Assembly: GCA_964615415.1 (NCBI GenBank)
Contig: CAZTNI010000001.1
Coordinates: 112,746-176,745 of the forward strand
Source: an uncultured Candidatus Saccharibacteria bacterium
GTDB taxonomy: Bacteria > Patescibacteriota > Minisyncoccia > Phycocordibacterales > SBAW01
Length of the DNA: 64,000 nucleotides
Direction: 5' to 3'
Made by a program: the position numbers and the translations under genes. Below, piece by piece: positions 4,221 through 31,367 of the stretch (positions within the stretch are counted from its first letter, which is position 1; every line of letters starts with the position of its first letter). The notes beneath the pieces were generated by a model that was not told where the DNA came from, did no database searches, and worked only from the letters and a program-made list of their open reading frames with translations.

Positions 4221-4224
4221 CAAT

Positions 4225-4262
4225 CGCCGCGACCTATTGTAGGTCGCGGCGATTTCTTTTTG
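4225..4262 (+). terminator. Intrinsic terminator (stem cgccgcgacc / ggtcgcggcg plus T-run)
   Basis: GC-rich perfect hairpin followed by tttctttttg, immediately after the stop codon at 4220. Confidence 0.6.
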
Positions 4263-4833: not shown

Positions 4834-4852
4834 GTCGCGGCGGTTTCTTATT
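4811..4852. terminator. Bidirectional intrinsic terminator, same hairpin sequence as 4225-4262
   Basis: aaaaccgccgcgacc-tattgt-aggtcgcggcggtttctt. A-run upstream and T-run downstream; it sits between convergent genes. Confidence 0.6.
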
Positions 4853-8410: not shown

Positions 8411-9202
8411 ATGAAACTAATCTCCTGGAATGTTAATGGGATCCGGGCGGTACATAAGAAGGGGCTTTTTGTGCCTTTTGTTAAGAAATACAACCCAGAT
8501 ATCATTTGTTTACAGGAAACAAAGGCCGAACAGGGCCAAAGTGAGGTGGATTTGCCAGAGTACGAAGAGTTTTGGAACTCTGCGGAAAAGAAGGGCTACA
8601 GCGGCACTGCTATCTTTACCAAGGTCAAACCAAAGAGCGTTTTCTTAGGTCTACCAGCCGACATAACTAGTAAACACAAGCTTTCTGACGATGGGTACGG
8701 TGACCCGGCAAAGGAGGGCCGGGTTGTTGCGGCAGAGTTTGACAACTACTTTGTGGTCACGGTTTATACCCCCAATGCTAAGGACGACCTTTCCCGGGTG
8801 AAGCTCCGCCACAAACAGTGGGACCCGGCCTTTTTGGAGTACGTGCAGCGGTTAGAGGAAAAGAAGCCGGTCATCTTTTGTGGCGACCTTAATGTTGCTC
8901 ATACGCCGGACGACCTCGCGCGACCTAAGGAGAACGTTGGTAAGAAGGGTTTTACCGACGAAGAGCGCGAAGGCATAGAAAACATTGTAAATGCTGGTTT
9001 TATTGATACTTTTCGCCTGTTTACCCAAGGAAATGGCCACTATACGTGGTGGAGCCACTTTGCGAACGCTCGTGCACGGAACGTCGGTTGGCGTATAGAC
9101 TACTTTTTTGTATCAAAAGCGTTGAAAAATAAGGTTAAAAAGGCAGAAATCCTTCCAGAAGTCGTTGGTTCCGATCACTGCCCTGTATTGCTAGAGCTAT
9201 AA
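8411..9202 (+). CDS. xth: Exodeoxyribonuclease III (AP endonuclease)
   Basis: MKLISWNVNGIRA...GSDHCP. The ORF-track start at 8189 is an extension overlapping the opposite-strand gene, so the ATG at 8411 was used. Confidence 0.9.
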   Translation: MKLISWNVNGIRAVHKKGLFVPFVKKYNPDIICLQETKAEQGQSEVDLPEYEEFWNSAEKKGYSGTAIFTKVKPKSVFLGLPADITSKHKLSDDGYGDPAKEGRVVAAEFDNYFVVTVYTPNAKDDLSRVKLRHKQWDPAFLEYVQRLEEKKPVIFCGDLNVAHTPDDLARPKENVGKKGFTDEEREGIENIVNAGFIDTFRLFTQGNGHYTWWSHFANARARNVGWRIDYFFVSKALKNKVKKAEILPEVVGSDHCPVLLEL

Positions 9203-9206
9203 GCAT

Positions 9207-9280
9207 AGAGACTGCAAGAATCTCCTTTGCTCCGGAGAGATATACCTCACTCCTGCACAAAGGAGATTCTTGCAGTCTCT
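9207..9280. repeat. Perfect 23-bp inverted repeat with 28-nt loop, followed by a T-run
   Basis: agagactgcaagaatctcctttg ... caaaggagattcttgcagtctct. The loop contains the palindrome ctccggag. 3' of xth. Confidence 0.8.
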
Positions 9281-12150: not shown

Positions 12151-13023
12151 ATGAAACGTGTAACCTTGCAAGTGGCCTCAGGAGGAGAGTATGAACTCCT
12201 CGACTGTGGCGGTGAAGAAAAGCTTGAGAAATATAGTAATGTCGTGCTTGTACGCCCCGACCCACAGGCGCTCTGGGAAAAATCTTTACCGGAGTCAGAG
12301 TGGCACAAGGCGGACGGACGCTACGAACGCGAGGGTAGGGAGGGGAAGTGGATTACTAAAACGACGCTTCCTAAGGAATGGCCGATCCAGTTTGGCGGTT
12401 TTACCTTTATTATTCGCCCTACTTCCTTTAAGCACACCGGAGTTTTTCCGGAACAGGAAGCTAATTGGGCCTGGATCAGCGAATCTGTTACAAAAGCGGG
12501 CAGGGGAGTGAAAGTGCTTAACCTCTTTGCCTACACTGGCGGGGCTACGCTCGCTGCGGCTGCTGCGGGCGCTGAAGTGACACATGTAGATGCTTCTAAA
12601 ACAGCTGTAACGTGGGCAAGAGAAAATGCCGCAGCCTCAAACTTGAGCGAAGCTCCTATACGCTGGATTGTTGAAGATGTACGCCTATTTGTAGAGCGTG
12701 AACTGAAGCGAGGTAACAAATATGACCTTATTTTAATGGATCCGCCGGCCTTTGGTCATGGTCCTAAGGATGAATTATGGAAAATCGAGGAGCATTTGGT
12801 GGAGTTTATTAAACTTTGCAGCCAATTACTGACTGAAAAGCCGCTCGGTATCCTTATAAACGGCTACGCCGAAGGGTATTCTCCACTTGCGTTTGCGTAT
12901 AACCTAGAGCCTTTACAGGAAAAGTATGGTGGTTCGATCGAATATGGCGAGCTTACTATAGAAGACAAGGCAAAAAAGCGACTTCTCCCTGCAGGTATCT
13001 TTGCTCGGTGGCGAACAATTTAG
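12151..13023 (+). CDS. Class I SAM-dependent methyltransferase (RlmI/RlmK-like)
   Basis: LNLFAYTGGATLAAAAAGA...DPPAF motifs. The ORF-track start at 12118 overlaps tRNA-Pro, so the Met at 12151 was used. Confidence 0.8.
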   Translation: MKRVTLQVASGGEYELLDCGGEEKLEKYSNVVLVRPDPQALWEKSLPESEWHKADGRYEREGREGKWITKTTLPKEWPIQFGGFTFIIRPTSFKHTGVFPEQEANWAWISESVTKAGRGVKVLNLFAYTGGATLAAAAAGAEVTHVDASKTAVTWARENAAASNLSEAPIRWIVEDVRLFVERELKRGNKYDLILMDPPAFGHGPKDELWKIEEHLVEFIKLCSQLLTEKPLGILINGYAEGYSPLAFAYNLEPLQEKYGGSIEYGELTIEDKAKKRLLPAGIFARWRTI

Positions 13024-14210: not shown

Positions 14211-14281
14211 GCGGGATTAGTTTAGTGGTAAAACGACAGTTTTCCAAACTGTAGTTGGGAGTTCGATTCTCCCATCCCGCA
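14211..14281 (+). tRNA. tRNA-Gly (anticodon TCC)
   Basis: Acceptor GCGGGAT/ATCCCGC, D-stem GTTT/AAAC, anticodon stem ACAGT/ACTGT with loop TTTCCAA, T-arm GGGAG-TTCGATT-CTCCC. Confidence 0.85.
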
Positions 14282-14324
14282 CACGTTCATACCGGATTCA
14301 TTACAAGCTGATTAAGTAACGAAC

Positions 14325-15645: not shown

Positions 15646-17175
15646 TTATCGTGCAAATTCAATGGCACGAGTCTCGCGAATTACCGTAACTTTGATCTCT
15701 CCGGGGTATTTAAGTTCACTTTCAATGCGTACTGCGATGTTTCGTGCGAGTTCTCGAGCTGCAACGTCGGTCATTTCGTCTGGTTTTACGAATACCCGCA
15801 CTTCGCGACCTGCAGAAATGGCATACGATTTCTCAACGCCGGTGAATGAATTAGCGATTCCTTCAATATCTGCAAGGCGTTTTATGTAATTTTCAACACT
15901 GTCACGGCGTGCGCCCGGTCGGCCGCCAGAAATAGCGTCGGCAACCTGCACGATAATAGATTCCGGTGTTTCGTACGGGTATTCCTCGTGGTGCGCCTGC
16001 ATTGCTTTGATGACTTCTTCAGAGACGCCAAATTTAGCGAGCACACGACGGCCAATTTCCACATGCGTTCCTTGTACTTCGTGGTCCAAGGCTTTACCAA
16101 TGTCGTGCAAAAGTGCGCCTGCGCGTGCGACTGCTGGGTTTGCACCAAGTTCTTCCGCGATCATGCCGGCAATGTGCGCCATCTCTACCGAGTGCTGGAG
16201 CACCGACTGACCGTACGATGTGCGGAAGTAGAGGCGACCCAATATCATCAAGAGGCGAGGGTCGAGGTTAAGTACGCCCGCTTCAAATGCTGCGGCTTCA
16301 GCTTTTTCTTTAATGATTTTATTTATTTCACCTTTTGCTTTTTCTACCGTTTCTTCAATCTTTGCGGGTTGAATACGGCCGTCGATGATAAGGTTTTCGA
16401 GTGCAACACGGGCAACTGCGCGGCGAATCGGGTCGTATGAAGAAAGCACGATAGAGCCAGGGGTGTCGTCGATAATAATTTCTACACCCGTTGCACGCTC
16501 AAGAGTTTTAATATTGCGGCCTTCTTTACCGATAATCTTTCCTTTAATATCGTCATTCGGAATCGTTACTGCGGTTGCCATGGTGTCGCTCGCAACTGAA
16601 TTACCAAGGCGATGAATCGCAGTGGTAAGAATTTCCCGTGCACGGCGCTCAAGACGTTCCATACCGTCGCGCTCAAGTTTCTGAATACGCACCATCATAT
16701 CTTCTGCATGTTCGCGCTCTAACTCTGCGTGGAGTTGCTGCAGCGCAGCGTCTTTTGACATGCCTGCCACACGTGCAAGTTCTTCAGCGCGCTGGGAAAG
16801 CATAGCTTCTGCGCGTTCGCGGATCGTTTTTACTTCTTCAATTTTATTTTTAACACGCTCAATTTCTTCATCGAGTTCTGCTTGTTTTTTGTCGAGAGAT
16901 TCCTCACGTTTAAAAATACGGTCCTCTGCCCGGGTAATTTTTTCTTCTTTATCTTTGAGCTCTGCTTCGACAGCAACTGCTTTTTGACGAGCCTCTTCTT
17001 CCGCACCGGAAGTTATGCGGTTTGCTTCTTCTTTAGCAGTGAGGAGAATTTGCTTAACTTCAAGCTCGATAGAGCCTTTGCGTGCAAGAACAAGGAGCCA
17101 CCTAAAGGTGTAACCAATGACCGCTCCAAGAACGCCCGCAAGCGCGAGGAGCAAAAACACTATTTTTAATGACAT
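15646..17175 (-). CDS. rny: Ribonuclease Y
   Basis: N-terminal TM helix, coiled coil, KH domain, HD domain (LLHDIGKA). Confidence 0.9.
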   Translation of the reverse strand: MSLKIVFLLLALAGVLGAVIGYTFRWLLVLARKGSIELEVKQILLTAKEEANRITSGAEEEARQKAVAVEAELKDKEEKITRAEDRIFKREESLDKKQAELDEEIERVKNKIEEVKTIRERAEAMLSQRAEELARVAGMSKDAALQQLHAELEREHAEDMMVRIQKLERDGMERLERRAREILTTAIHRLGNSVASDTMATAVTIPNDDIKGKIIGKEGRNIKTLERATGVEIIIDDTPGSIVLSSYDPIRRAVARVALENLIIDGRIQPAKIEETVEKAKGEINKIIKEKAEAAAFEAGVLNLDPRLLMILGRLYFRTSYGQSVLQHSVEMAHIAGMIAEELGANPAVARAGALLHDIGKALDHEVQGTHVEIGRRVLAKFGVSEEVIKAMQAHHEEYPYETPESIIVQVADAISGGRPGARRDSVENYIKRLADIEGIANSFTGVEKSYAISAGREVRVFVKPDEMTDVAARELARNIAVRIESELKYPGEIKVTVIRETRAIEFAR

Positions 17176-22428: not shown

Positions 22429-22758
22429 CTAGTGGCCAAGCAGCAATGGTATCACAAACTCCCGCAGTACTCCGCCCGAAGGGTTGGCAACCTCAAAGTA
22501 AACTGAGACCAAGAATATAATCCCTGACGCAAGGAACAGATACATTGCGAGGAGCGGTGGGCCGACATGCGACACATCATTTCCAGCAAGTCGTGCCTTC
22601 TGGAGTTGCATGCTCTTCCGCATGATGAGGAAGCAAAAGCCAACGAAACAGAGTATTTCCGCAAGGAACAATACCAGGCTTACCCAAAAGACTGTGTTAG
22701 GAGACATCGCTATTCCTCCGGTTTGTGTGAATTCGTCCGCCGTGACTATACCACTCAA
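22429..22758 (-). CDS. Hypothetical membrane protein
   Basis: 109 aa (start may be the internal Met at 22707). Three hydrophobic helices. Confidence 0.4.
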   Translation of the reverse strand: MSGIVTADEFTQTGGIAMSPNTVFWVSLVLFLAEILCFVGFCFLIMRKSMQLQKARLAGNDVSHVGPPLLAMYLFLASGIIFLVSVYFEVANPSGGVLREFVIPLLLGH

Positions 22759-22773
22759 TGTATACTATGGCTA

Positions 22774-24444
22774 ATGCACGTTGATGAACGCGTCCTCGCG
22801 GATTTTCTTATTGATAGCGGACTTATCTCCCGCGGCACGCTTGCTGACGCGCGTTCGCGAGCAAGCGAACAAGGAGAAACGTTTTATGATGCGCTGTTAA
22901 GTGGTGGATTTGTTAGCGGCGACCACTTGCGTCGTGCGGCGGCGCACACACTTGGTGTGCCGTTTGTGATGCTTGAAGAAAGCGACATCGCACCGGAGGC
23001 ACTCGTGCTTATTCCGGAACCGCTTTCGCGTACGCACAACATAGTTGCATTTCGGGTGCACGACACAACTTTGGAAGTGGCGCTCCTGAACCTTGATGAT
23101 CTGAAATTACTCGAGTCGCTCCCTGTTGCAACAAGCTACAAACTCGCGCCGCGACTTACCACCCAACACTCTATAAAAAAGGCTCTGCTTGGCTATCAAA
23201 AGCACCTCAAGGAGAAGTTTGGCTCCTTTGCACAGCACGGCTTCCATGTTGTGGAAGGCCTTATAAAACACGCTATTTATAGTCGTGCAGGCGGCGTGCA
23301 TATAGAACCATCTACGACGGGCTTTCTTATCCGCTACCGCATCGGCGAGATGCTGCACGAAGCTATGCAGCTTCCTGAACACGTTGGCAAACTCCTGGTC
23401 GACCAACTAAAGGCGGCAGCAAAACTATTTCCCGTTGCAAGTGCGCAAGAAGGACACTTTACTATCGAACACGATAATGAAACACACACGGTGCACCTCT
23501 CCACTATGCCGATCCATAAAGGAGAGAAGTTAGTACTTCGTCTCGCAAAACAAGATGTGCATGCAAAAATAGGAAGCTTAGAGTCCCGAGGGTTTCATGG
23601 CGAAGCGCTTGAGGCGTTACACAAAGCCCTCGCGCTGCGTTCTGGACTCATTCTGGTTGCAAGCGAAGACGCAAAACACTTGCAGTCGCTGCTCTATACA
23701 CTCCTTGCTACTGCAGCACATCCGTATCGTGCCCTTGCGAGCGTGGAAGAGGGTGTGACGTTGCATTTGCCACATGTTGCACAGGGGAGCACTACCGTCT
23801 CGAAGCTTTCCTACGCAACACTCTTGCGCACGACGCTGAAACACGACCCGGATGTGGTTATGGTCAGTCGTGTGGATGAAACAGAGGTAGCGCTCCTGGT
23901 AAGCGAGGCTGCATCAAACGGCAAACTGATCATTGCGGGTATAGAAGCTCCGTCCGCGGGCAGGGCTATAGAAAAAATGCGCAACTTCGGTGTTTCACCC
24001 CTCCTTCTAGCGTCAGTAGTAAAAGTCGCAGTTGCTTCAACGATACTACGCAAGCTGTGTCCGCACTGTCGCAGTACGCACCGGCTCTCGCGCGCGGAAG
24101 GCGCCATTTTGGAAGAGCGGGCAGACTTCGGGCGCGTCTTTACTGCATTAAAAGAAGAGGGGGTGATAGACCGCGCCGCAAGCTGGAAAGAACTCGACTT
24201 TTACTGGCCGGAGGGCTGTAGCAAATGCGAGGGGGGATATATGGGCGGGGTAGGGGTAGGAGAGGCCTTGCCTATATCTCAGGTCCAAAAAGAGCTTATT
24301 TTACGAGAGATGTCGGGGGAAGACATGGCAAACCAGGCCCGGGTAGAGGGGGGTCTAAACCTCCCGGAAGACGCCCTTTTTAAGGCTGCGAGGGGGGATA
24401 CCTCTCTAGAAGAGGTGGTAGCCCTTGTGAAACGCCCGAACTAA
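22774..24444 (+). CDS. GspE/PilB-family (type II secretion / type IV pilus ATPase-like) protein with degenerate ATPase motifs
   Basis: N-terminal T2SSE_N/MshEN-like domain (LADFLIDSGLISRGTLADARSRASEQ...) and a C-terminal tetracysteine motif (CPHC...CSKC). The Walker A position reads GLILVASEDAKHLQS instead of GPTGSGKT, Walker B reads DPDVVMVSRVDE, and the His-box reads GKLIIAGIEAPSA. Confidence 0.75.
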   Translation: MHVDERVLADFLIDSGLISRGTLADARSRASEQGETFYDALLSGGFVSGDHLRRAAAHTLGVPFVMLEESDIAPEALVLIPEPLSRTHNIVAFRVHDTTLEVALLNLDDLKLLESLPVATSYKLAPRLTTQHSIKKALLGYQKHLKEKFGSFAQHGFHVVEGLIKHAIYSRAGGVHIEPSTTGFLIRYRIGEMLHEAMQLPEHVGKLLVDQLKAAAKLFPVASAQEGHFTIEHDNETHTVHLSTMPIHKGEKLVLRLAKQDVHAKIGSLESRGFHGEALEALHKALALRSGLILVASEDAKHLQSLLYTLLATAAHPYRALASVEEGVTLHLPHVAQGSTTVSKLSYATLLRTTLKHDPDVVMVSRVDETEVALLVSEAASNGKLIIAGIEAPSAGRAIEKMRNFGVSPLLLASVVKVAVASTILRKLCPHCRSTHRLSRAEGAILEERADFGRVFTALKEEGVIDRAASWKELDFYWPEGCSKCEGGYMGGVGVGEALPISQVQKELILREMSGEDMANQARVEGGLNLPEDALFKAARGDTSLEEVVALVKRPN

Positions 24445-24498
24445 CTAGGTTTTAAGCCAAATATCGGCTCTATAGAGCCATTTTTTATATGGAAATGC

Positions 24499-24527
24499 TT
24501 GACAAAAGCCTCCTTTGGGTGTATACT
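24499..24527 (+). promoter_or_regulatory. Consensus sigma70 promoter (TTGACA-17-TATACT)
   Basis: TTGACA 24499-24504, 17-nt spacer, TATACT 24522-24527. Confidence 0.55.
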
Positions 24528-24573
24528 TAATGGGTAATAGTGTTCCTTCTATATATGTAGCTTCCGGTAGTGC

Positions 24574-24602
24574 TTGACAAAATGCGCCACCTATGATACA
24601 AT
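24574..24602 (+). promoter_or_regulatory. Consensus sigma70 promoter with extended -10 (TTGACA-17-TGaTACAAT)
   Basis: TTGACA 24574-24579, 17-nt spacer, TGaTACAAT ending at 24602. Confidence 0.55.
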
Positions 24603-24731
24603 AGAAAGGTAACAGTGCAGTACGGGTTCGCTTGTACAGCAACAACTCAATAGCAAGACAATCTGAGGAGAGAGTCTTAAGGGAAGTCCAGTCTAGTAAT
24701 AGATAGGGCTCCTTAATCAATCAATTGCTTT

Positions 24732-24776
24732 AAACAAAGGCGATTGGCTCCTCAAACAAGGGCCAGTCGCCTTTGT
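24732..24776 (+). repeat. 16-bp stem hairpin
   Basis: aacaaaggcgattggc ... gccagtcgcctttgtt (one G-U pair), 13-nt loop. Confidence 0.7.
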
Positions 24777-24784
24777 TCGTTAGT

Positions 24785-24848
24785 AGGGACACTTCTGGAG
24801 GTAGGTCAAAAATTTTAAACCAAACCAGCCTGATCTCCAGAAGTGTCC
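24785..24848 (+). repeat. Perfect 14-bp stem hairpin with 34-nt A/T-rich loop
   Basis: ggacacttctggag ... ctccagaagtgtcc. Loop gtaggtcaaaaattttaaaccaaaccagcctgat. Confidence 0.7.
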
Positions 24849-25016
24849 TCGCTACGACAGTATGTGCAGTCGGTGAGTGGAGGATGGGTCTCTGACAACA
24901 AAATAGCGAATTAAGTTCAACAGGAGAAAAACTGTTGCGTAAGCAACGACTCCATATTGTTGTTCTTCTTCGCCGAGCTGACCTCACATAGGTCGGAGCG
25001 GCAAGAAGGATCGCAA

Positions 25017-25262
25017 ATGATCCTGAAGTTCTTTTTCAACCCGCCGCTCAATGCGGCAGAGGAGATTCAGATGAACAAGGCAGAGCGTGCAGTGAAGGTC
25101 CAGCTTGCGCTGGAGCTTCTCAAGAAGACTTCCATTCCGAAGGTCCGGAGAAATCCGGACCTAAACGCCTGGGTCAACACGGCTTCGCAGCTGCTCGGTC
25201 TCCGTGGCGACTCTGCCGCGGACTTCGAGAATGAGCTCGAAGTTGCGTACATTCGCAGCTAG
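25017..25262 (+). CDS. Hypothetical protein
   Basis: 81 aa from the ATG at 25017 (RBS aagga). The ORF track starts at TTG 24957. Confidence 0.3.
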   Translation: MILKFFFNPPLNAAEEIQMNKAERAVKVQLALELLKKTSIPKVRRNPDLNAWVNTASQLLGLRGDSAADFENELEVAYIRS

Positions 25263-25267
25263 GGCTC

Positions 25268-25316
25268 CCGGGCGACGCGAAAACTATCCCGCGTCGTCCA
25301 CCCATTCAAATTTTTG
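25268..25316 (+). terminator. Putative terminator hairpin
   Basis: gggcgacgcg-aaaactatcc-cgcgtcgtcc, then ...atttttgg. The T-run is displaced 8-9 nt, hence weak. Confidence 0.35.
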
Positions 25317-25382
25317 GACAATCGAAAATTTGAACGGGTCGCAATCAGGCGATTCCGAAACCCTCAAGGGGAGGTACGTGTC

Positions 25383-25793
25383 ATGGGCTATAACGAAACC
25401 GGACGCCTCTTCGAGAGGCGAGTAATCGGTGAGTGCACGGTGTCCTACCAAGGTCACCTGTGCTGGAAGGAAGCTGCCGCGCAGGTTCGCAAGAATCAGC
25501 CGAAGCAGCTTCCGAAGAATGCCACGGACCTTCTCGCGGAGGTTCGCCGGCAGACCAAGGCCGATGTGCAGTTCTACACTGCGATCGGCAGCGCCCTGGA
25601 TTACTTTCACGGCGTTGACGGATTCTTTGAGTTTGCGGGCTTTGTGGTGACGATCGACGTTACCAAGAACCCGCACAAGGATTGTGGGAAGGCCAACATG
25701 GTCGTCTGCGAAGACGATCTTGAAGATCTTCCTGCGCTTGCGGGCCGCGTGGTCCGCGAGTTTGTAACGCAAGCGAGGAGAGCAGGAATATAA
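25383..25793 (+). CDS. Hypothetical protein
   Basis: 136 aa from the ATG preceded by RBS aggggagg. GC3-rich codon usage. No family recognised. Confidence 0.45.
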   Translation: MGYNETGRLFERRVIGECTVSYQGHLCWKEAAAQVRKNQPKQLPKNATDLLAEVRRQTKADVQFYTAIGSALDYFHGVDGFFEFAGFVVTIDVTKNPHKDCGKANMVVCEDDLEDLPALAGRVVREFVTQARRAGI

Positions 25794-25795
25794 AA

Positions 25796-26047
25796 ATGAA
25801 AAACCGCAAACCTCGCGCGGCGTTTCTGTTTGAATGCCGACGATGCGGGGGGCAGTACCCCGTCTCCAAAAAGACGGCGGAGCAGTTCCTCTCCAAGGAA
25901 TTGCGAAAAAAGCTCAAACACGCTCTTGGTCATGAAGGAGCTGTGGGAGCCGTTCTAACGTTTAAGAACGGATGTCCCCAGTGCGTCCCGGAAAATCTTG
26001 AGGCAGTAGTTGAGCTTTCGGTCCTAGAGCCGAAACAAACGCACTAA
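25796..26047 (+). CDS. Small zinc-ribbon-like protein (CxxC...CxxC)
   Basis: 83 aa: FECRRCGG...NGCPQC. Confidence 0.4.
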   Translation: MKNRKPRAAFLFECRRCGGQYPVSKKTAEQFLSKELRKKLKHALGHEGAVGAVLTFKNGCPQCVPENLEAVVELSVLEPKQTH

Positions 26048-26395
26048 CGAGGCGAGCAGCAATGCTCGCCTCCTCTATAACCCAGCTGACACCCTGTTGG
26101 CTGGATTTCGAGGAGACTGCCAGACATGATCATGACCGAGGTTCTCATTCTGAACCCCCGCCGCTGCAAGTGCCGCTGGCACCGTTTCAAGACGGTGTAC
26201 TGCCACGAGGCGCCGGCGTTGGCCCAGCTCCTGCGGGAGATGGGCTACCAGGCCAGGCTTCGCCTCGCTTAGTACACAAATGGTTTGGATGGGACGAGCG
26301 CGTAATTGCTCGCCCCACCAATTAAGTTTTTTACACAGGTAGAAAATTTAATTGGTCATCATTCGATGGCTGATTGTTCAAACGGAGGAAGTGTA

Positions 26396-26797
26396 ATGAT
26401 CAAGTTTCTTGGAATTTTGATTCTCGCGCTCAGTGCCAACATGTTCTTCGTCCTCGTGTTCGACCCGCAGGGCATGTCGGCCGAGGGCTACATCCTCGGC
26501 TGGGGCATGACCCTGGCGGCGATTTTCGCTGGCCCGGCGACCTGGCGCATGGCTGGGGGACACGCTCCTGTAGAGGGGTGGGGAGTCGCGTTCCTCGCTA
26601 TCTCCCTCTGCGTCACCGCAATCAGTGTCTACCTGTTCGTGGATGTCGCGATGCTTGCGAGGACTGCCGAGACTGAGGCTTCCATCGTCCTCGGCGTGTT
26701 CGCCGCCATGCTGGCGGGCCTCGGACTGCTCATGGCCCATCTGGCTCAGAAGCTCATGGCGGACAGCATCAACGAGCCCGCCACTTCCAACACGTAA
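26396..26797 (+). CDS. Hypothetical multi-pass membrane protein
   Basis: 133 aa from the ATG at 26396 (RBS ggagg), four hydrophobic helices, strong GC3 bias. Confidence 0.5.
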   Translation: MIKFLGILILALSANMFFVLVFDPQGMSAEGYILGWGMTLAAIFAGPATWRMAGGHAPVEGWGVAFLAISLCVTAISVYLFVDVAMLARTAETEASIVLGVFAAMLAGLGLLMAHLAQKLMADSINEPATSNT

Positions 26798-26884
26798 CGG
26801 CAACAAGCCGTTCAAGAGGCAAGCGTTCGCGCTTGCCTCACTATCTAAGTTCTTATCTCGTCATCAAGACGGATGAGAGTTTAG

Positions 26885-26910
26885 ATAGGACCGCAAATCA
26901 GTTGTGGTCC
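26885..26910 (+). promoter_or_regulatory. Operator-like palindrome ATAGGACCGCAAATCAgTTGTGGTCC
   Basis: GGACC-N13-GGTCC dyad immediately upstream of the RBS/ATG of the 26935 gene. A near-identical copy lies at 27171-27196. Confidence 0.5.
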
Positions 26911-26934
26911 TGAAGTTCAACAAGGAGAGAAGCG

Positions 26935-27102
26935 ATGTGGATTCTTCTTACGCTCGCAGCTTGCGTGTTTGCCTACGCGGGCAAGCATCCGGATACCTTC
27001 GGACTGGCGCATGACGACTCTTTTCTGATGTATGTGATCGCAGTCGTTTTCGTCCTCTGGGCGATCATGGCTGCCATCACCGCTTCCGTACGGAAGTGGT
27101 GA
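26935..27102 (+). CDS. Small hydrophobic protein (55 aa, two predicted helices)
   Basis: MWILLTLAACVFAYAGKHPDTFGLAHDDSFLMYVIAVVFVLWAIMAAITASVRKW. RBS aaggagag 6 nt upstream. Below the ORF-track length cutoff. The opposite-strand ORF 26917-27123 is considered spurious. Confidence 0.4.
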   Translation: MWILLTLAACVFAYAGKHPDTFGLAHDDSFLMYVIAVVFVLWAIMAAITASVRKW

Positions 27103-27170
27103 CCAACCAAGGAGCAAGCGCAAATGCTTGCTCCACTATTTAAGTTTTTCAGTGAATGGAAAATTTAAAT

Positions 27171-27196
27171 AGGACCGCAAATCATTTGTGGTCCGA
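27171..27196 (+). promoter_or_regulatory. Operator-like palindrome ATAGGACCGCAAATCAtTTGTGGTCC (copy 2)
   Basis: Same dyad as 26885-26910, upstream of the 27219 gene. Confidence 0.5.
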
Positions 27197-27218
27197 TGGT
27201 TCAACCAAGGAGAGTGCA

Positions 27219-27560
27219 ATGACTGTTCTGAAGATTGTTGTTCTGTTCATCCTGCAGGCCGTCGCTTTTGTTGCGTATGTGGCGGCGGGGTTTGCTGCTG
27301 TGTTTCTCGTTCTGGCGGCTATCGGGTCTGTCGTTCATCTGATCGGCAACCAGGACCAGATCGACGAGCTGCAGGCATGGCTCGTGTTCTTCGCCTACAT
27401 CGGCGCGTTCGCGGTGATCGCGACCGTCGGGAACTTCCTCGACGCGCTGTTTTCCGCTTGCGATGCCGAGCGCAAGGCGATCATCGTTCGGTGGAAGTAC
27501 GACCGTCAGACGCGGCGGCTCTACCCGAACGCTGGCAAGCCGAGCCTCGACTTCCGCTAA
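27219..27560 (+). CDS. Hypothetical membrane protein
   Basis: 113 aa from the ATG at 27219 (RBS aaggagag), three hydrophobic helices. Confidence 0.5.
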   Translation: MTVLKIVVLFILQAVAFVAYVAAGFAAVFLVLAAIGSVVHLIGNQDQIDELQAWLVFFAYIGAFAVIATVGNFLDALFSACDAERKAIIVRWKYDRQTRRLYPNAGKPSLDFR

Positions 27561-27657
27561 CTACAAGCGGGAGTACAATTGGAGCAAGCTCAAGCAGCTT
27601 GCTCCCTCTACAAAGCTAATAAGCAATCCCGCTTACTAGCTTTCGGAGGGAACGAAG

Positions 27658-27825
27658 ATGATTCTCCAGTACCTTCAGAAGGGTCTTCGTCTGGCCAACG
27701 ACGCCTTCACGGCGTACACGGCCAAAGACCCGAATTACATCGCACTTAAAACTGCGGTGTTCACAGGCGTTCCCATTCTTTGGATGAAGATCCAGGAGTG
27801 GCGACGCAAACTCGCGGCGAAGTAA
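27658..27825 (+). CDS. Small hypothetical protein (55 aa)
   Basis: MILQYLQKGLRLANDAFTAYTAKDPNYIALKTAVFTGVPILWMKIQEWRRKLAAK. RBS ggaggg. Below the ORF-track cutoff. Confidence 0.35.
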   Translation: MILQYLQKGLRLANDAFTAYTAKDPNYIALKTAVFTGVPILWMKIQEWRRKLAAK

Positions 27826-27858
27826 TCTTACGATTCCTTCGCCGCTCCTTCTAAATAT

Positions 27859-28191
27859 TCAATCGATTCCTCTACAAGCGAAAGTTTGTACGGTTGAATG
27901 TTTAGAAGGGGCGATAATATCAACCCTATACAAGGCCGAGGGCGCACAGATTTTTGTTGCGTACAGCTGTTCTCCCGGTAGCACCAGGAGTTCTCGCATG
28001 TCTCGCGAGGTGAAATAACGAGCCCGGTGTTTTCCCCACCGGCCTACCTGCTCCCGCTTTGTGCGGTAAAGGGGTTCAAGAAAAAGGGAGGTGAAGACGA
28101 TGGTTGCGACCGCCTTTAGCGACAGCGACTCGTCTTGCACTAACACAATGTGTTTTGTAGAGCGCGCATTTTGAGCGCAGCTCCAAAGCAC
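27859..28191 (-). CDS. Hypothetical protein
   Basis: 110-aa ORF on the opposite strand inside the island, no recognisable family. Confidence 0.25.
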   Translation of the reverse strand: MLWSCAQNARSTKHIVLVQDESLSLKAVATIVFTSLFLEPLYRTKREQVGRWGKHRARYFTSRDMRELLVLPGEQLYATKICAPSALYRVDIIAPSKHSTVQTFACRGID

Positions 28192-28304
28192 TTTCCGACC
28201 GTTCGTATTGCATGAGTGGTCGGCTTTGTACTGTCTATACTCGAGTGGGCAATTTTTGTTCCCACTCGTTTTTCATGGGTCGCAGAAATGTTTAAACTGC
28301 GGCC

Positions 28305-28365
28305 CCGTTTCAAGATTTTTTCACAAGAAGAAATTTTGAAACGGGGATCGAAAATGTTCCCCTGC
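28305..28365 (+). promoter_or_regulatory. Conserved 5' leader, copy 1 (ccYtttcaagat..ttttgaaaSgggga-tcgaaaATGtt-cccc)
   Basis: About 85% identical to 29075-29135. A hairpin (gggga/tcccc) encloses the ATG of the uORF at 28354-28425 (MFPCVQVQVQPAPIDMGQHRRVE), whose stop overlaps the ATG at 28422. Confidence 0.5.
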
Positions 28366-28421
28366 GTGCAAGTTCAAGTTCAACCCGCTCCCATTGATAT
28401 GGGGCAACACAGGAGAGTGGA

Positions 28422-29033
28422 ATGATTCTCATCAAGGTGACCCCGAAGCAGGACGACATCTTCATCGTCGGCCCGCTCGGCCTCGCCGTGCACATGACCG
28501 CCATCACCCTCGAGGTGGAGGTGGTCATGGTGCCGACGCCGGCGACAGCGCTCGAGATGTACGAGCTGGCTATGCAGGTCAACGCGCTCGGCTTCGGCTG
28601 GGCCGGCGACCTGCTCCTTCGGGAGGCTATTCGCCTCGCGGAGAAGGAGCTCAACGAGTGGTTCACTGCTGCCGCTCTCGACATGGGCGACCTCGACGAG
28701 GCATTCCAGCTCCCGCCGGACCTCGAGGAGATTTACGGCCGCCCGCAGCCGCAGGTGTCGCGTCGTGCGACCAACCCCGGCTACGGCGGCTTCGCCGACA
28801 TGTTCGACGAGATCTTCGGTTCGGCCGATGCCTTCCGCTATCGCGGCGGCCTCGACGCCGGCCAGGATCCGTTCGTCGACGATCGGCCGTTCAACCATCG
28901 CGACTTCGGTCGGGGTCTCGGGCTCGATCACGAGGGTTCTCGGCACTTCGGCGCCGACCTCGCTGCGCGTCTCGCCAACCATGTCGGCTCGTTCGGCAAC
29001 GGCCACTATCGCGGCCACCAGCCGCATCGTTAG
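28422..29033 (+). CDS. Hypothetical protein: structured N-terminal ~100 aa plus G/R/D/F-rich low-complexity C-terminus
   Basis: 203 aa with extreme GC3 bias identifying the frame. The overlapping ORFs 28394-29197 (+) and 28380-29027 (-) are alternative-frame artefacts of the high-GC DNA. Confidence 0.5.
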   Translation: MILIKVTPKQDDIFIVGPLGLAVHMTAITLEVEVVMVPTPATALEMYELAMQVNALGFGWAGDLLLREAIRLAEKELNEWFTAAALDMGDLDEAFQLPPDLEEIYGRPQPQVSRRATNPGYGGFADMFDEIFGSADAFRYRGGLDAGQDPFVDDRPFNHRDFGRGLGLDHEGSRHFGADLAARLANHVGSFGNGHYRGHQPHR

Positions 29034-29074
29034 TACTGTCTACAACATTGGCGAACGCGCTTACGCGTTCGCCA

Positions 29075-29135
29075 CCCTTTCAAGATCTTTTTTCGAAAGA
29101 GATTTTGAAAGGGGATTCGAAAATGTTTCCCTGGA
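29075..29135 (+). promoter_or_regulatory. Conserved 5' leader, copy 2
   Basis: The uORF 29123-29197 (MFPWNVCNRPVGNGANKEEVHEQP) overlaps the downstream ATG at 29184, and the hairpin around its start codon is conserved. Confidence 0.5.
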
Positions 29136-29183
29136 ATGTGTGTAACCGCCCCGTCGGAAATGGGGCAAACAAGGAGGAAGTGC

Positions 29184-29342
29184 ATGAGCAACCGTGACAT
29201 CGAGCGCGTCGCCGCCGCCCGCGGCATCTCGAACAACGCGGCGAAGAAGATGATGCGGCGCCGCAAGGGCGGCACCAAGTCGCCCGCCGTCCCGGTCCGC
29301 GGGATGCCCGTTGCCGGCACCGGCAAGCCCAAGGGCGAATAG
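29184..29342 (+). CDS. Small basic protein (52 aa)
   Basis: MSNRDIERVAAARGISNNAAKKMMRRRKGGTKSPAVPVRGMPVAGTGKPKGE. RBS aaggagga 7 nt upstream. Confidence 0.35.
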   Translation: MSNRDIERVAAARGISNNAAKKMMRRRKGGTKSPAVPVRGMPVAGTGKPKGE

Positions 29343-29463
29343 TCTGATCTTTTCCTGGGCGGACGCAAATGTCCGCCCTCTACTTAAGTTCGCCACGGTG
29401 TATAGTGGTGGTGGACTTAACGGGAGTTCTAACCGCGGAGGAAATCCGCAGAAAGGAGGGAAG

Positions 29464-29658
29464 GTGAGTATTGAAAGGTACTTGTGGACCATCTGGGCGG
29501 TGATCGCTGTTGTGGCGGTTGCTGCTGCGGAGGGCCATTGGGTCATGGTGGCTGTCGTACTTCTGGTCACTGCGCTCATGGCTAAGGCCTTTGGGCCGTG
29601 GCCGCGTCCTTGGAAGCGGCATTCAGTTTCGGAGGTCCGGCATGGACCTGCGGAATGA
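29464..29658 (+). CDS. Small hydrophobic protein (GTG start)
   Basis: RBS aaaggaggg, then GTG. VSIERYLWTIWAVIAVVAVAAAEGHWVMVAVVLLVTALMAKAF... Confidence 0.3.
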   Translation: MSIERYLWTIWAVIAVVAVAAAEGHWVMVAVVLLVTALMAKAFGPWPRPWKRHSVSEVRHGPAE

Positions 29659-29782
29659 GCGGCCTATTCCCGAAGACGAGGAGAATCCGAACCGAGGCAT
29701 GTGGGTATTCGTACTCAGCATGATACTCGGGGTGGCGCTCGTACTTGGGCTCGCTACGTGGCGAGGTGTCCTTGTACTCTGA
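29642..29782 (+). CDS. Small hydrophobic protein (46 aa)
   Basis: MDLRNERPIPEDEENPNRGMWVFVLSMILGVALVLGLATWRGVLVL. RBS ggagg. Overlaps the previous gene by 17 nt. Confidence 0.3.
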   Translation: MDLRNERPIPEDEENPNRGMWVFVLSMILGVALVLGLATWRGVLVL

Positions 29783-29805
29783 TCGTCTGCTTCGGGAGCG
29801 AAAAC

Positions 29806-29838
29806 GGACGAACGCGAAATTATGTCTCGCGTTCGTCC
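29806..29838 (+). terminator. GC hairpin (perfect 12-bp stem) followed by 'ctctattcagtt'
   Basis: ggacgaacgcga-aattatgtc-tcgcgttcgtcc. Confidence 0.45.
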
Positions 29839-30026
29839 ACTCTATTCAGTTCGCCTTATATAAGGTGAACTGATCGAGTCTTTGTAAAACTGTTTCGTAC
29901 TCGGCGTGCCCAGTGTCATGGCAGCAAAAACTCTCTCCTCGAGAAATTTTTCTTCGCTTCTATGATGCTTGGCACGCCGAGTATGTATTTCGGTTTTACT
30001 GTGTAACTGAAACAAAGGAGACTTGA

Positions 30027-30524
30027 ATGTCTGCACCTTCAACACCTGCTCCTGCGAATGCTGGCATGTCGTGGAAGCTGAAGGTTTTGATCGCCGTCGC
30101 CGTCGCCGGGCTCATCGCTTGGTGGGGCATCGACAGCAACCTTCGCTTCGGATTGTGGGGATGGGCGGCTGGTGCCGCCTTCCTCATCACACTGTTCTTC
30201 CTGAGTGGTGTGATCGGTTGGACGATGAAGCACCCGGTCGCTACTCTCATCGGTCTCGTAGCCTTCCTCTACGGAGGCGTCTACCTTTGGCAGACGCTCT
30301 CGGAAGGTCGGCCGCCGTTCGGTAGCTGGATGACGCCCGAAACCCAGGCGAAGTTCGGCGAAACGGGCGAGCTGATGGATCCGTTCAACCTCGCTCTGAT
30401 CCTCGTCGCTGGCGCTGGCGGACTGTTCTTCTTGTGGAAGGCCTGGGAAAATGGCCGCAAGAATCGCGAAGAAGCCAAGAAGAAGAAGGCAGAAGCTGCC
30501 AAACACAAGGGCAGTGGCCACTAG
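30027..30524 (+). CDS. Hypothetical membrane protein with Lys-rich C-terminus
   Basis: 165 aa, four hydrophobic helices. RBS aaaggag. Confidence 0.5.
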   Translation: MSAPSTPAPANAGMSWKLKVLIAVAVAGLIAWWGIDSNLRFGLWGWAAGAAFLITLFFLSGVIGWTMKHPVATLIGLVAFLYGGVYLWQTLSEGRPPFGSWMTPETQAKFGETGELMDPFNLALILVAGAGGLFFLWKAWENGRKNREEAKKKKAEAAKHKGSGH

Positions 30525-30555
30525 TACCTTGCGGCAAGTGCCGCACAACAATATC

Positions 30556-30594
30556 GGGCCCCCGACGCTTCGCGCGTCGGGGGCCTTTTCTGTT
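30556..30594 (+). terminator. Intrinsic terminator (right edge of the high-GC block)
   Basis: gggcccccgacg-cttcgcg-cgtcgggggcc-ttttctgtt. Confidence 0.6.
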
Positions 30595-30599
30595 ATTAT

Positions 30600-31367
30600 G
30601 TGCACATGGCAAAAAAGCGTCTCGTGGTTGGTAACTGGAAAATGTATATTACTTCGCCTGAGGACGCATCAAAGTTTACAGTCGCGCTTCGCCGCAAGGT
30701 GCGCGGAGTCTCCGGTGTCGATGTATTTCTTGCTCCTCCGTTTACTATCCTTCCTAAAGTAGCGGACACACTCAGTAGTTCTCCTATACAGGTCGGCGCG
30801 CAAACTATCTCTGCTTTTATGGACGAAAAGCACACAGGAGATATTTCAGGAGTGATGCTTAAAAAAGCTGGTGCCTCGTTTGTTATTATTGGCCACTCCG
30901 AGCGCCGTTCACTCGGCGAAACGAACGAGCTCGTGCACGACCAAGTACTTCGCGCAGTTGAGTCGGGCCTTACGCCTATTCTTTGTATTGGCGAAAAAGA
31001 ACATGAAGAAGGCGGCGCACATTTTAATTTTATTGAACAGCAACTTTCGTCGGCTCTCAAAGACCTTCCACCAAAAGCTGTAAAGAAATTAATTATTGCC
31101 TACGAACCCGTGTGGGCGATAGGGAAAGCGGCAGCCGATGCTATGAAGCCGCAGGACCTTGAGCAGATGGTTATCTTCATTAAAAAAGTGCTCGCCGACT
31201 CGCTCGACCGCAAGGTGGCGCTCAGCGTGCCGATCCTGTACGGAGGTTCAGTAGAAGCAGAGAATGCGCCGAGTTTGTTGGAAACAGGGATCTCGGGCTT
31301 CCTTGTGGGGCGCGCAAGTACCGACGTTGATTCATTTACGCAGATAATCACTCTATGCAAAAAATAA
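30600..31367 (+). CDS. tpiA: Triosephosphate isomerase
   Basis: VVGNWKM, IIGHSERR, AYEPVWAIG motifs. Confidence 0.95.
   Translation: MHMAKKRLVVGNWKMYITSPEDASKFTVALRRKVRGVSGVDVFLAPPFTILPKVADTLSSSPIQVGAQTISAFMDEKHTGDISGVMLKKAGASFVIIGHSERRSLGETNELVHDQVLRAVESGLTPILCIGEKEHEEGGAHFNFIEQQLSSALKDLPPKAVKKLIIAYEPVWAIGKAAADAMKPQDLEQMVIFIKKVLADSLDRKVALSVPILYGGSVEAENAPSLLETGISGFLVGRASTDVDSFTQIITLCKK

Follow-up and report, generated by a model that had tools for sequence, protein, structure and literature searches.

The locus analysed here raises the question of whether the palindromes that are repeated in front of several of its small genes are sites bound by a regulator on the DNA, or structures that act in the transcript. 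The locus is an island (24445-30600), with all genes on one strand, within the window, by which we mean the whole 64-kb stretch of DNA that was analysed; it comes from an uncultured bacterium of the Parcubacteria, in the candidate phyla radiation (CPR). The original prediction favoured the first possibility: a dyad present twice, and 8-bp inverted repeats in front of three genes (starting at 26396, 26935 and 27219), were taken as sites for a common regulator that would make the small membrane-protein genes a regulon. The dyad itself could be reproduced, as the pattern ATAGGACCGCAAATCAKTTGTGGTCC has two exact matches in 64 kb, at 26885-26910 and at 27169-27194 (the second copy had been placed 2 nt off, at 27171-27196), and 100 shuffles gave an expectation of 0. 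A leader followed by an ATG is present 3' of both copies, but the two leaders are not identical, the second (TTCAACCAAGGAGAG, 27200-27214) having one extra C compared with the first (TTCAACAAGGAGAG, 26916-26929); the start codons downstream of the two dyads are at 26935 and 27219. All three 8-bp inverted repeats (ccaattaa/ttaattgg, ctatctaa/ttagatag and ctatttaa/ttaaatag) were also confirmed. Each of them, however, is only the base (8 bp) of a much longer hairpin. These hairpins, at 26317-26356, 26841-26888 and 27136-27172, have 16-21 pairs each when G.U pairs are counted, and their plus-strand folding has z scores of -6.8 to -8.7, not equalled by any of 200 shuffles. The same type of hairpin was also found at 25300-25339, 27843-27913, 28303-28346, 29075-29113, 29384-29420 and 29846-29873, and 17 of the 35 long hairpins in the window are located inside the 6.2-kb island (binomial p ~4e-9).

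These long hairpins are part of a module of three hairpins (H1, H2 and often H3) that recurs in 9-10 intergenic regions of the 13-gene island, such that almost all of its intergenic regions hold one. H1 is a GC-rich hairpin located 8-25 nt past the upstream stop codon; it has a stem of 9-11 GC-rich pairs, loops that include UUCG and GCAA tetraloops, and no U tract. H2, the AU-rich hairpin described above, abuts H1 and has 16-23 bp and a loop or spacer of 3 to >40 nt. In its core, 5'-AAG-NNN-UU pairs with 5'-GA-NNN-UUU, and a stretch of 4 bp, made up of three covarying pairs and a conserved U-A, is bounded by a G.U wobble on one side and a U.G wobble on the other. H3, which is present in many modules and corresponds to the dyad of the original prediction, is a short GCAA-bearing hairpin adjoining H2; it is followed by UUCAAC, a strong Shine-Dalgarno sequence and AUG, in that order. 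Between H2 or H3 and the start codon there are 20 to 60 nt, depending on the module. The modules and their parts are as follows.

25270 to 25351, plus strand: module before g2, with H1 at 25270-25299, H2 at 25300-25339 and a short hairpin at 25340-25351
26291 to 26316, plus strand: H1 before the gene at 26396, GC-rich, following the stop codon, lacking a U tract and not called as a terminator
26317 to 26356, plus strand: H2 before the gene at 26396, AU-rich, 18 bp, with ccaattaa/ttaattgg as its base; -18.1 kcal/mol, z -8.7 (minus strand -9.8); covariance model 53.4 bits
26816 to 26839, plus strand: H1 before the gene at 26935, 10-bp GC-rich stem, UUCG tetraloop
26841 to 26888, plus strand: H2 before the gene at 26935, with ctatctaa/ttagatag as its base; -23.7 kcal/mol, z -6.8 (minus strand -17.7); covariance-model match
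26888 to 26910, plus strand: H3, dyad copy 1, GGACCGCAA/UUGUGGUCC, 9 bp including one G.U, abutting H2; -12.9 kcal/mol versus -10.3 on the minus strand
26916 to 26937, plus strand: start-associated leader of the gene at 26935-27102, with UUCAAC, the Shine-Dalgarno sequence AAGGAG and AUG
27111 to 27134, plus strand: H1 before the gene at 27219, covarying with the H1 at 26816 (GAGG../..CCTC versus GGAG../..CTCC)
27136 to 27172, plus strand: H2 before the gene at 27219, with ctatttaa/ttaaatag as its base; -13.6 kcal/mol, z -8.1 (minus strand -5.2); covariance-model match
27172 to 27194, plus strand: H3, dyad copy 2, by pattern match and folding
27200 to 27221, plus strand: start-associated leader of the gene at 27219-27560, with UUCAACC, AAGGAG and AUG
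27843 to 27913, plus strand: long hairpin of the H2 type with an apical insert; -39.6 kcal/mol, z -9.2; 26.2 bits
28242 to 28362, plus strand: module before g9, with H1 at 28242-28268, H2 at 28303-28346 and H3 at 28343-28362; 56.7 bits
29050 to 29131, plus strand: module before g10, with H1 at 29050-29073, H2 at 29075-29113 and H3 at 29112-29131
29357 to 29420, plus strand: diverged module before g11, with H1 at 29357-29378 (GCAAAU loop) and H2 at 29384-29420
29806 to 29873, plus strand: diverged module after g12, with H1 at 29806-29838 and H2 at 29846-29873

Several lines of evidence indicate that it is the pairing within these hairpins that is conserved. First, in an alignment (A5) of 20 H2 copies from 6 genomes, whose counts are not independent because many copies are paralogues, and lean to structure because the register was picked to fit the helix, 93.4% of the cells pair, against 73% after shuffling (0/500 shuffles reach the observed value) and no more than 55% in slid controls; both sides change in 12 of the 16 pairs, and the covariation score is 0.632 versus 0.244 for shuffled alignments. 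Second, the two wobbles are conserved: there is a G.U at offset 0 in 15 of the 20 copies and a U.G at +5 in 15 of the 20, the remaining five copies at each site having standard pairs (AU/GC and CG/UA), and this conservation holds among genomes whose PilB proteins are just 50-65% identical. Third, in six of seven H2 copies the fold of the plus strand has an advantage of 6-17 kcal/mol over that of the minus strand, and the plus strand is also the more stable one in both H3 copies. G.U outnumbers A.C in the hairpins by 43 to 8, an asymmetry due chiefly to the two conserved wobble columns, outside of which the counts are 13 to 8 and not significant. The half-site sequences of H2 vary while their pairing is kept, and similarity in sequence is limited to the two H3 copies, at 26888 and 27172. 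The original prediction had proposed to look for covariation in related genomes, and module pairing is indeed kept in relatives; before the g2 homologues of the window, L152 and L158, where the modules are orthologous, the sequence differs and the hairpin is kept. The compensatory variation that had been noted can be upheld as the mark of a selected structure, with strong covariation reaching other genomes, but not as that of a dimer-binding site. In our view, it is highly probable that we are dealing with a structural module at the RNA level rather than with a DNA operator.

The signals for transcription of the island, and its genes, are the following.

24499 to 24602, plus strand: two tandem sigma-70-type promoters, TTGACA-17-TATACT and TTGACA-17-TACAAT, each matching 11/12 consensus positions
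24603 to 25070, plus strand: conserved non-coding leader RNA, which aligns across 7 loci and has covarying helices
25071 to 30524, plus strand: 13 small co-oriented genes, g1-g13, from gene calls
30556 to 30586, plus strand: canonical intrinsic terminator closing the island, with a 13-bp stem and a U tract

No other strong promoter was detected in 24400-30700, and promoter-like sites are absent between 24602 and 29939, that is, through the first 12 genes; the two tandem promoters probably drive the whole island. The relatives show the same arrangement, each island being headed by one or two promoters of 11/12, and the interior of the L148 island has no sigma-70-like site beyond 9/12 matches, which are at chance level. 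That the lineage uses canonical TTGACA-17-TATAAT promoters can be seen at each island head and in L159. Among the strong stems of the island, only the one at 30556-30586 qualified in the terminator scan, which the host terminators passed; none of the H1 hairpins was called, as they failed the U-tract criterion. These results bear on the possibility that the modules are terminator-promoter cassettes like the promoter-early stem-loops (PeSLs) of T4-type phages (PMC4122927, PMC2839356), in which case each gene would be its own unit, H1 would terminate, and H2/H3 would be a non-canonical promoter. The layout is the same, i.e. a composite junction of a stem-loop, an AT-rich conserved block, a Shine-Dalgarno sequence and a start codon; PeSLs also flank orphan genes, in a hyperplastic region where gene content varies at conserved junctions, and H1 occupies the exact place expected of a terminator. 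However, none of the modules has a -35/-10 match even though the lineage has canonical promoters, H1 is without the U tract of host terminators, and a promoter would leave the compensatory pairing and the wobbles of H2 unexplained; moreover, the conserved block of the island is itself a covarying hairpin, and the element does not belong to a phage. We therefore regard a PeSL-like arrangement as unlikely.

The distribution of the module among related genomes provides a further test of its specificity. Matches to the covariance model in the 64-kb window are found inside the island only. The model also matches the islands of L147, L148, L152, L157 and L158, and it has no match in L150, which has no island, or in the flanking DNA of the relatives. 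Palindromes of the genome-wide REP or MITE type were considered and rejected on the grounds of this confinement, in the window as well as in the relatives. The independence of the modules from the two conserved genes of the island is evident from two relatives: in L148, the leader and at least six modules are present in an island that lacks both g2 and g3, and L159 possesses both of these genes and is without modules. On account of this double dissociation, g2 and g3 were rejected as factors acting on the hairpins, including the zinc-ribbon gene at 25796 (g3), which had been proposed as the regulator. Two observations speak for DNA operators bound by a dimeric protein such as this one, namely the two identical 26-nt dyads, each 24 nt from a start codon, and the conservation of a zinc-ribbon gene within the island. 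Against them stand half-sites that vary with compensation, spacers of 3 to >40 nt instead of a fixed length, conserved wobble pairs, a fold that is asymmetric between strands, the dissociation of modules and genes, and the lack of a promoter within reach, the dyads being located ~2 kb downstream of the island's only strong promoters. Operators for a common regulator are consequently highly improbable, and of the regulon predicted for the small genes only one part stands: the genes are probably co-expressed.

The proteins of the island, in contrast to its junctions, are nearly all orphans, and their genes look foreign. The GC3 of g1-g13 is 0.56-0.94, versus 0.44-0.52 in the flanking pilB and pgk. 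Of the 13 proteins, just those of g2 (25383-25793) and g3 (25796-26047) have homologues elsewhere, which are found in relatives. No significant family emerged for the island proteins from scans against Pfam, PHROGs, NCBIfam and PADLOC, the sole match being a weak one of g2 to REase_II; a search for g9 among 5.8 billion proteins returned g9 only, and the protein clusters at 90% are singletons throughout. No close relative was identified when GTDB representative genomes were scanned with PilB. The modules separate coding sequences that are unrelated and not paralogous to each other, gene content at orthologous junctions differs among the relatives, and relative to L147 the modules and leader show 77-78.5% identity compared with 53-64% for coding sequence. 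Tandem duplication, which the original prediction had considered as a possible full explanation of the repeats, fails to explain them because the intervening genes are unrelated, and the module is found conserved in related genomes. A similar idea, that local duplication or gene conversion left the modules behind without any function, may draw on the fact that neighbouring modules are the most alike (71% for c and d, 60% for f and g), but it does not account for double changes that keep pairing, for wobbles kept across genomes as distant as those compared here, or for modules that are better conserved than coding sequence; it is hardly credible and largely refuted.

The unrelated, co-oriented orphan genes, the homologous structured junctions between them, and the conserved promoter and leader platform upstream are also reminiscent of an integron-like cassette array. 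The palindromes might then be recombination sites at the DNA level, acting as single-strand hairpins or cruciforms and possibly served by g2, which is PD-(D/E)xK-like and weakly resembles restriction or resolvase-type nucleases. As in attC arrays, imperfect palindromes are located between mostly orphan genes, structure is conserved above sequence, and gene content varies at orthologous junctions; the foreign-looking GC3 fits as well. On the other hand, neither strand of 24445-30600 contains a single RYYYAAC/GTTRRRY core-site pair, the island has no integrase, and folding favours the coding strand, in contrast to attC sites, in which the bottom strand folds. In addition, no recombinase domain was found in the ten island proteins scanned (g1-g9 and g13), the fold matches of g2 are not significant (E >= 0.4), and g2 and the modules dissociate in L148 and L159. 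Such dedicated sites are very unlikely, and ordinary homologous recombination between repeats suffices for gene turnover. At the island boundaries, no direct repeats of >8 nt were detected.

The explanation that we prefer, and to which we give reasonable though not high confidence, is that the dyads and inverted repeats are transcript hairpins of an intercistronic three-hairpin module that punctuates the message for processing and stability. Judging from the positions of the promoters and the terminator, the 13-gene island would be transcribed as one long RNA, from the two promoters at 24.5 kb via the leader to 30.56 kb. A host endonuclease specific for double strands would cut H2, after which the upstream cistron would carry H1 as a cap at its 3' end, and the downstream cistron would carry H3 as a cap at its 5' end, so that each small gene would get its own stable message. 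These roles in cleavage and stabilisation are deduced from sequence and predicted folding. The modules are homologous to each other, the intervening genes are unrelated and differ among relatives, and the modules may well double as joints for homologous recombination in gene turnover. RNase III is the default candidate for the endonuclease, and we put forward RNase III-type processing with end-capping in this specific form only tentatively. A processing site for this enzyme is expected to comprise about two helical turns of double-stranded RNA; H2 has 16-23 pairs, and those of its stems that have 16-18 bp would be rather short for an RNase III substrate. The partial genome sequences searched yielded no RNase III (rnc) signature, which is uninformative.

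It was also considered whether the modules affect translation. A role as insulators that keep the ribosome-binding site open is unsupported, because the Shine-Dalgarno sequence is not systematically unpaired in the predicted ensembles; its accessibility ranges from 0.02 to 0.75, and this candidate was rejected on that basis. Alternatively, the modules could be translational or riboregulatory elements that tune each cistron with no cleavage involved, either by binding a repressor or activator that recognizes RNA or by switching in the manner of a thermosensor. The wobble-flanked conserved stretch does resemble a feature recognized by a protein, and UUCAAC and the Shine-Dalgarno sequence are located just downstream, as in the start-associated sequences and their extended form (SAS/ESAS) of Cluster K mycobacteriophages (PMC3203893). 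Yet the predicted H2/H3 folds leave the Shine-Dalgarno sequence unsequestered, the distance to the start codon is not fixed, and H1 is left unaccounted for, which makes this possibility quite unlikely. The SAS, whose function is unknown, have a 13-bp consensus (GGGATAGGAGCCC), and in about half of the cases imperfect inverted repeats (~17 bp, with a variable spacer of 4-13 bp) are located just before them (PMC3203893). In both systems an asymmetric conserved sequence that includes the ribosome-binding site lies upstream of many starts in one orientation, and H2 matches the geometry of the inverted repeats, a resemblance that is not homology. Unlike the SAS, the island has no GGGATAGGAGCCC, its leader being UUCAAC(C)AAGGAGAG, it belongs to another host lineage, its repeats show clear compensatory change and conserved wobbles, and H1 precedes them. 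Like the PeSLs (PMC4122927), the SAS/ESAS (PMC3203893) exemplify repeated regulatory junctions.

With respect to processing in the transcript, the closest known counterparts are found in phages. The R sites of T7 are RNase III processing hairpins in the early polycistronic mRNA of the phage. Intercistronic RNase III sites of the Bacillus phage SP82 are cited in PMC4838370. As in these phages, long hairpins that are repeated and related within the element lie between small genes, here presumably co-transcribed, and the hairpins would remain at the message ends after cleavage. The island differs in that cleavage is a proposal, that its H2 of 16-23 bp has two symmetric wobbles and not an internal loop of the T7 type, that H2 is flanked by a dedicated H1 and H3, and that it is a chromosomal CPR element with no phage genes.

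The leader RNA is conserved to a similar degree as the modules (in the comparison with L147 it is 78.5% identical, and the adjacent coding sequences are 63-64% identical). It comprises a terminator-like hairpin (24733-24777), a second hairpin (24787-24848), an invariant block of 29 nt (24844-24872), a boxA-like block (24889-24899) and a long helix formed by 24957-24974 with about 25000-25016. Of six metagenome matches to the leader block, those in L153 and L156 were discarded as chance matches, and the block is absent from viral contigs. In being structured, and in lying after a strong promoter and before a long, hairpin-rich operon, the leader is similar to boxA or put/EAR-type antitermination leaders. 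The block CUYUGACAA matches the core of the E. coli rrn boxA (CUUUAACAA) at 7-8/9 positions, a likeness confined to one short block and to the E. coli consensus. The context of boxA is treated in PMC7665894. Module and leader match no described RNA family in Rfam 15, which in the window matched four tRNAs only, with sub-threshold hits that are chance matches of the microRNA type, and our literature search on similar CPR elements found nothing relevant.

If our interpretation is correct, the CPR, a poorly studied group, would have yielded two structured RNA elements that have not been described before, the H1-H2-H3 junction module and the ~450-nt leader, as well as a type of locus that is defined by conserved RNA structures while its protein content turns over nearly fully among relatives, with only two of the 13 genes shared. 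The two symmetric conserved wobbles would offer a precise recognition feature for the factor that reads H2. Going further, it may be speculated, although we think it rather unlikely that the whole picture holds, that the island is a gene-cassette platform new in Parcubacteria/Paceibacterota. It would begin with a strong promoter and a conserved, structured leader RNA, possibly with boxA-type or put-like antitermination and an internal attenuator. Behind these, foreign-looking genes for small, often membrane, proteins would form an array without a set end, each gene being delimited by a dedicated RNA module with a wobble-flanked helix read by a specific host factor. RNA structure, and not any conserved protein, would define this platform, on which cassettes would be both expressed and exchanged. 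For annotation, our interpretation would mean that palindromes repeated before genes in such islands should not be labelled as operators.

As regards a possible phage origin of the island, blastn against a phage collection gave no match, and motif-pattern scans of viral sequences returned only single chance matches. One of these is an unrelated perfect hairpin in L007 that shares GGACCGCAAATCA.

Upstream of three small genes, the original prediction had described a palindrome, occurring twice, and three 8-bp inverted repeats, and interpreted the palindromes as operators of a common regulator whose regulon would consist of small membrane-protein genes. The 26-nt pattern ATAGGACCGCAAATCAKTTGTGGTCC indeed has two exact matches in the 64-kb window, where none is expected by chance: one at 26885-26910, as described, and one at 27169-27194, 2 nt lower than the position originally assigned to it. 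Downstream of each copy lie UUCAAC, an AAGGAG ribosome-binding site and the ATG (at 26935 and 27219, respectively), and the leader sequence after the second copy has one C more than that after the first. All three inverted repeats were found as well, but their description was incomplete, because each forms just the basal part of a far longer hairpin (26317-26356, 26841-26888 and 27136-27172) of 16-21 pairs, including G.U pairs.

These hairpins are located in a 6.15-kb island of this Parcubacteria/Paceibacterota genome, flanked by the gene of a pilB-type ATPase on one side and by tpiA/pgk on the other. The island contains 13 small genes (g1-g13), all on the plus strand and with strong ribosome-binding sites, whose GC3 is 0.56-0.94, versus 0.44-0.52 for the flanking pilB and pgk. 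No Pfam or PHROG family was found for the ten island proteins scanned. Nearly every intergenic region of the island contains the same series of elements, namely H1, H2, often H3, UUCAAC, a Shine-Dalgarno sequence and the start codon. The main features are as follows.

24445-30600, plus strand: the island
24603-25070: conserved non-coding leader upstream of the first gene
25383-25793, plus strand: g2
25796-26047, plus strand: g3, the zinc-ribbon gene
30556-30586: canonical terminator at the island end
H1, 8-25 nt past the stop codon: GC-rich hairpin without a U tract, with loops including UUCG, GCAA and GCAAAU
H2, abutting H1 (0-4 nt): long AU-rich hairpin
H3, abutting H2 in several modules: short hairpin

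The presumed operator corresponds to H3 of two adjacent modules (GGACCGCAA/UUGUGGUCC, with one G.U). The window has 35 long hairpins; 17 fall in the island, and those outside it are ordinary A-tract/stem/U-tract terminators. The stretch 27826-28421 consists of 600 nt without a convincing ORF; within it, the segment 28228-28270 (GTACTGTCTA and an H1 hairpin) is a paralogue of 29033-29073 in which TTG replaces the stop codon TAG, and judging from its sequence the stretch looks like a decayed gene cassette.

Tandem gene duplication does not explain these repeats: the coding sequences between the modules share no significant similarity at the protein or DNA level, whereas the modules are 57-71% identical to each other. 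Among the 13 island proteins, only those of g2 and g3 have homologues in any relative; a search of 5.8 billion proteins yielded no homologue of g9, and the ten island-protein clusters looked up contained sequences of their own genome only. With so little to go on in the island proteins, relatives were sought through the flanking pilB. The island is present at the same place in the related loci L147 (PilB 65% identical) and L148 (50%), while in L150 (PilB 50% identical) tpiA directly follows pilB and the island is absent. In the window, L147 and L148 the island starts with a TTGACA-17-TATAMT promoter and the conserved leader, of which a 29-nt block (24844-24872) is identical in all three; a metagenome scan with this block identified four further true members (L152, L154, L155 and L157). 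A covariance model built on six H2 copies matched in the window only within the island, matched in the islands of L147, L148 (four), L152 (two), L157 and L158, and gave no match in L150. The modules are therefore conserved in related genomes, and in the matched relatives both the order of elements (H1, H2, sometimes H3, ribosome-binding site, ATG) and the wobble pattern are those seen in the window. Compared with L147, the leader and the H1-H2 module are 78.5% and 77% identical, versus 63% for g2, 53.5% for g3 and 64% for pilB, and orthologous junctions in the two loci are flanked by different genes. Since unrelated and variable genes are combined with conserved modules, the modules and the leader are the locus-defining parts, and the genes are the variable ones.

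The view that variation preserving complementarity reflects a structure proved right. In an alignment of 20 H2 copies from six genomes, many of them paralogous and hence not independent, 93.4% of the cells are standard pairs, versus 73% in shuffled alignments (0/500 as high) and at most 55% in slid controls, counts that are biased towards structure because we picked the register, setting it on a conserved AAG. Both partners vary in 12 of the 16 pairs, and the covariation score is 0.632 versus 0.244 for the shuffles. Two wobbles are conserved, G.U at offset 0 and U.G at +5, each in 15 of the 20 copies, the other five having standard pairs at either site. They enclose four pairs, of which three covary freely (UA/UA/UA, CG/GC/CG, AU/UA/CG and others) and the fourth is a conserved U-A at +4. 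The segment reads 5'-G-N4-U on both strands, so that a dyad axis relates the two wobbles, which would match the view of a dimeric, double-strand-specific factor. A long form of H2 occurs in L148 (12436-12506, 12565-12632 and 12900-12975), L158 (6505-6566) and L162 (~9180-9260 and ~12240-12310); its conserved apical part comprises UUGAUU, a hairpin with CAUGAGC and then GUCGAAUGG, and tandem G.A pairs, in a K-turn-like arrangement, would be possible in its UGAU/CGAA internal loop.

Several lines of evidence make it highly probable that the modules act at the RNA level and not as a DNA operator. First, predicted folding favours the plus over the minus strand, by 6-17 kcal/mol in 6/7 H2 copies, and it does so in both H3 copies as well. 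Second, H2 contains 43 G.U versus 8 A.C pairs; 30 of the 43 wobble cells sit in the two conserved columns and elsewhere the ratio is 13 versus 8, which is not significant, so the strand argument rests mainly on those positions and on the energy differences. Third, H1 has loops of the UUCG and GNRA type, and the modules are oriented alike with respect to the genes in every copy and every genome, lying after the stop codon and before the ribosome-binding site. Finally, no sigma-70-type promoter was found inside the island except a weak 9-of-12 match at 29939 (chance level), whereas two 11-of-12 promoters are present at 24499-24602, and canonical promoters are clearly used in this lineage. Given also that the hairpins are dissociated from g3, a regulon defined by operators is unsupported.

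The g3 product, an 83-aa zinc-ribbon protein (CxxC...CxxC), had been proposed as the regulator. Its gene adjoins g2 in the window, L147, L152, L158, L159 and L162, and the two form a conserved pair at different loci of CPR genomes (17 clusters for g2). However, in L148, whose island is complete, the leader and at least six modules occur in the absence of both g2 and g3, and L159 carries both genes, with ordinary promoters and terminators, but no modules. Both are thus unlikely to be the factor reading the hairpins, which is more likely a host factor. The g2 protein (136 aa) gave a confident AlphaFold model (pLDDT 94.6), whose structural matches are consistently PD-(D/E)xK nucleases, although weak and none significant, and it has a weak REase_II profile match. 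A distant g2 homologue lies immediately downstream of a Cas_csx3 (PF09620) gene in L163 (9529-10474).

The island promoter is present in two copies: TGCTTGACAAAA is found at 24496-24527 and again, 75 nt further on, at 24571-24602, each time with a good -10 element, and L152 and L154 likewise have two tandem promoters. Downstream of these strong promoters, the leader constitutes a conserved structured non-coding RNA of ~450 nt with covarying helices, and counterparts are present in L147 (4424-4846), L148 (11790-12218), L152, L154, L155 and L157. Its hairpin at 24733-24777 is terminator-like and near-identical in L147, and clear canonical U-tract terminators occupy the same position in L148 and L155. 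These features point to attenuation or riboswitch-like control at this position, or else to a distinct small RNA of ~150-200 nt. The block at 24889-24899 (TCTCTGACAAC) reads CUYUGACAA in seven leaders, with TGACA invariant, and resembles the consensus boxA antitermination core CUUUAACAA. A boxA context upstream of long arrays has been described (PMC7665894). As a lead only, the leader's features point to a combination of attenuator and antitermination element that precedes an operon rich in hairpins. Neither the leader nor the modules matched Rfam, and the leader is possibly a novel non-coding RNA or a novel cis-regulatory leader.

The island would be transcribed as a single unit that begins at the 24.5-kb promoters and ends at the terminator (30556-30586). 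An endonucleolytic cut in the long H2 duplex would then leave each cistron protected at both ends, by a GC-rich hairpin at the 3' end and, at the 5' end, by a hairpin immediately ahead of the next ribosome-binding site; the layout of H1, long duplex and H3 is what a design for endonucleolytic punctuation would call for. In phage T7, intercistronic hairpins are cleaved by RNase III. RNase III-type cleavage of such hairpins in SP82 early mRNAs is cited in PMC4838370. These two cases are the nearest working precedent for the modules, in which we infer the cleavage. No RNase III gene was seen in the partial genome sequence searched. Like the PeSLs of T4-type phages (PMC4122927), the modules are repeated homologous junctions around unrelated genes, but they lack the promoter that defines PeSLs; they share the geometry of the SAS/ESAS of Cluster K mycobacteriophages (PMC3203893), but not the SAS consensus sequence. 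A reading as integron attC sites fails on the core sites and on the folding strand, and a translation-insulating role was unsupported. We regard the module as one form of a known kind of element, RNA punctuation between cistrons or regulatory junction cassettes. It is conserved and apparently as yet undescribed, and it occurs together with the leader RNA in an island of variable small genes in CPR bacteria.

Other hairpin pairs were observed as well. In the related island of L148, a 53-nt hairpin (TCTCCCGYTCGGGCACTCT...GTGCCCGAACGGGGGA) occurs twice, at 14253-14305 and 16616-16668, near a HicB-like gene. Outside the island, a perfect 15-17-bp hairpin (CGCCGCGACCTAttgTAGGTCGCGGCG) is present in the window at both 4222-4254 and 4810-4848, 590 bp apart. 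The pilB ORF (22567-24444) is listed as 625 aa, whereas all homologues have ~550-560 aa and cover just 89% of it; its real start is probably ~69 codons further downstream.
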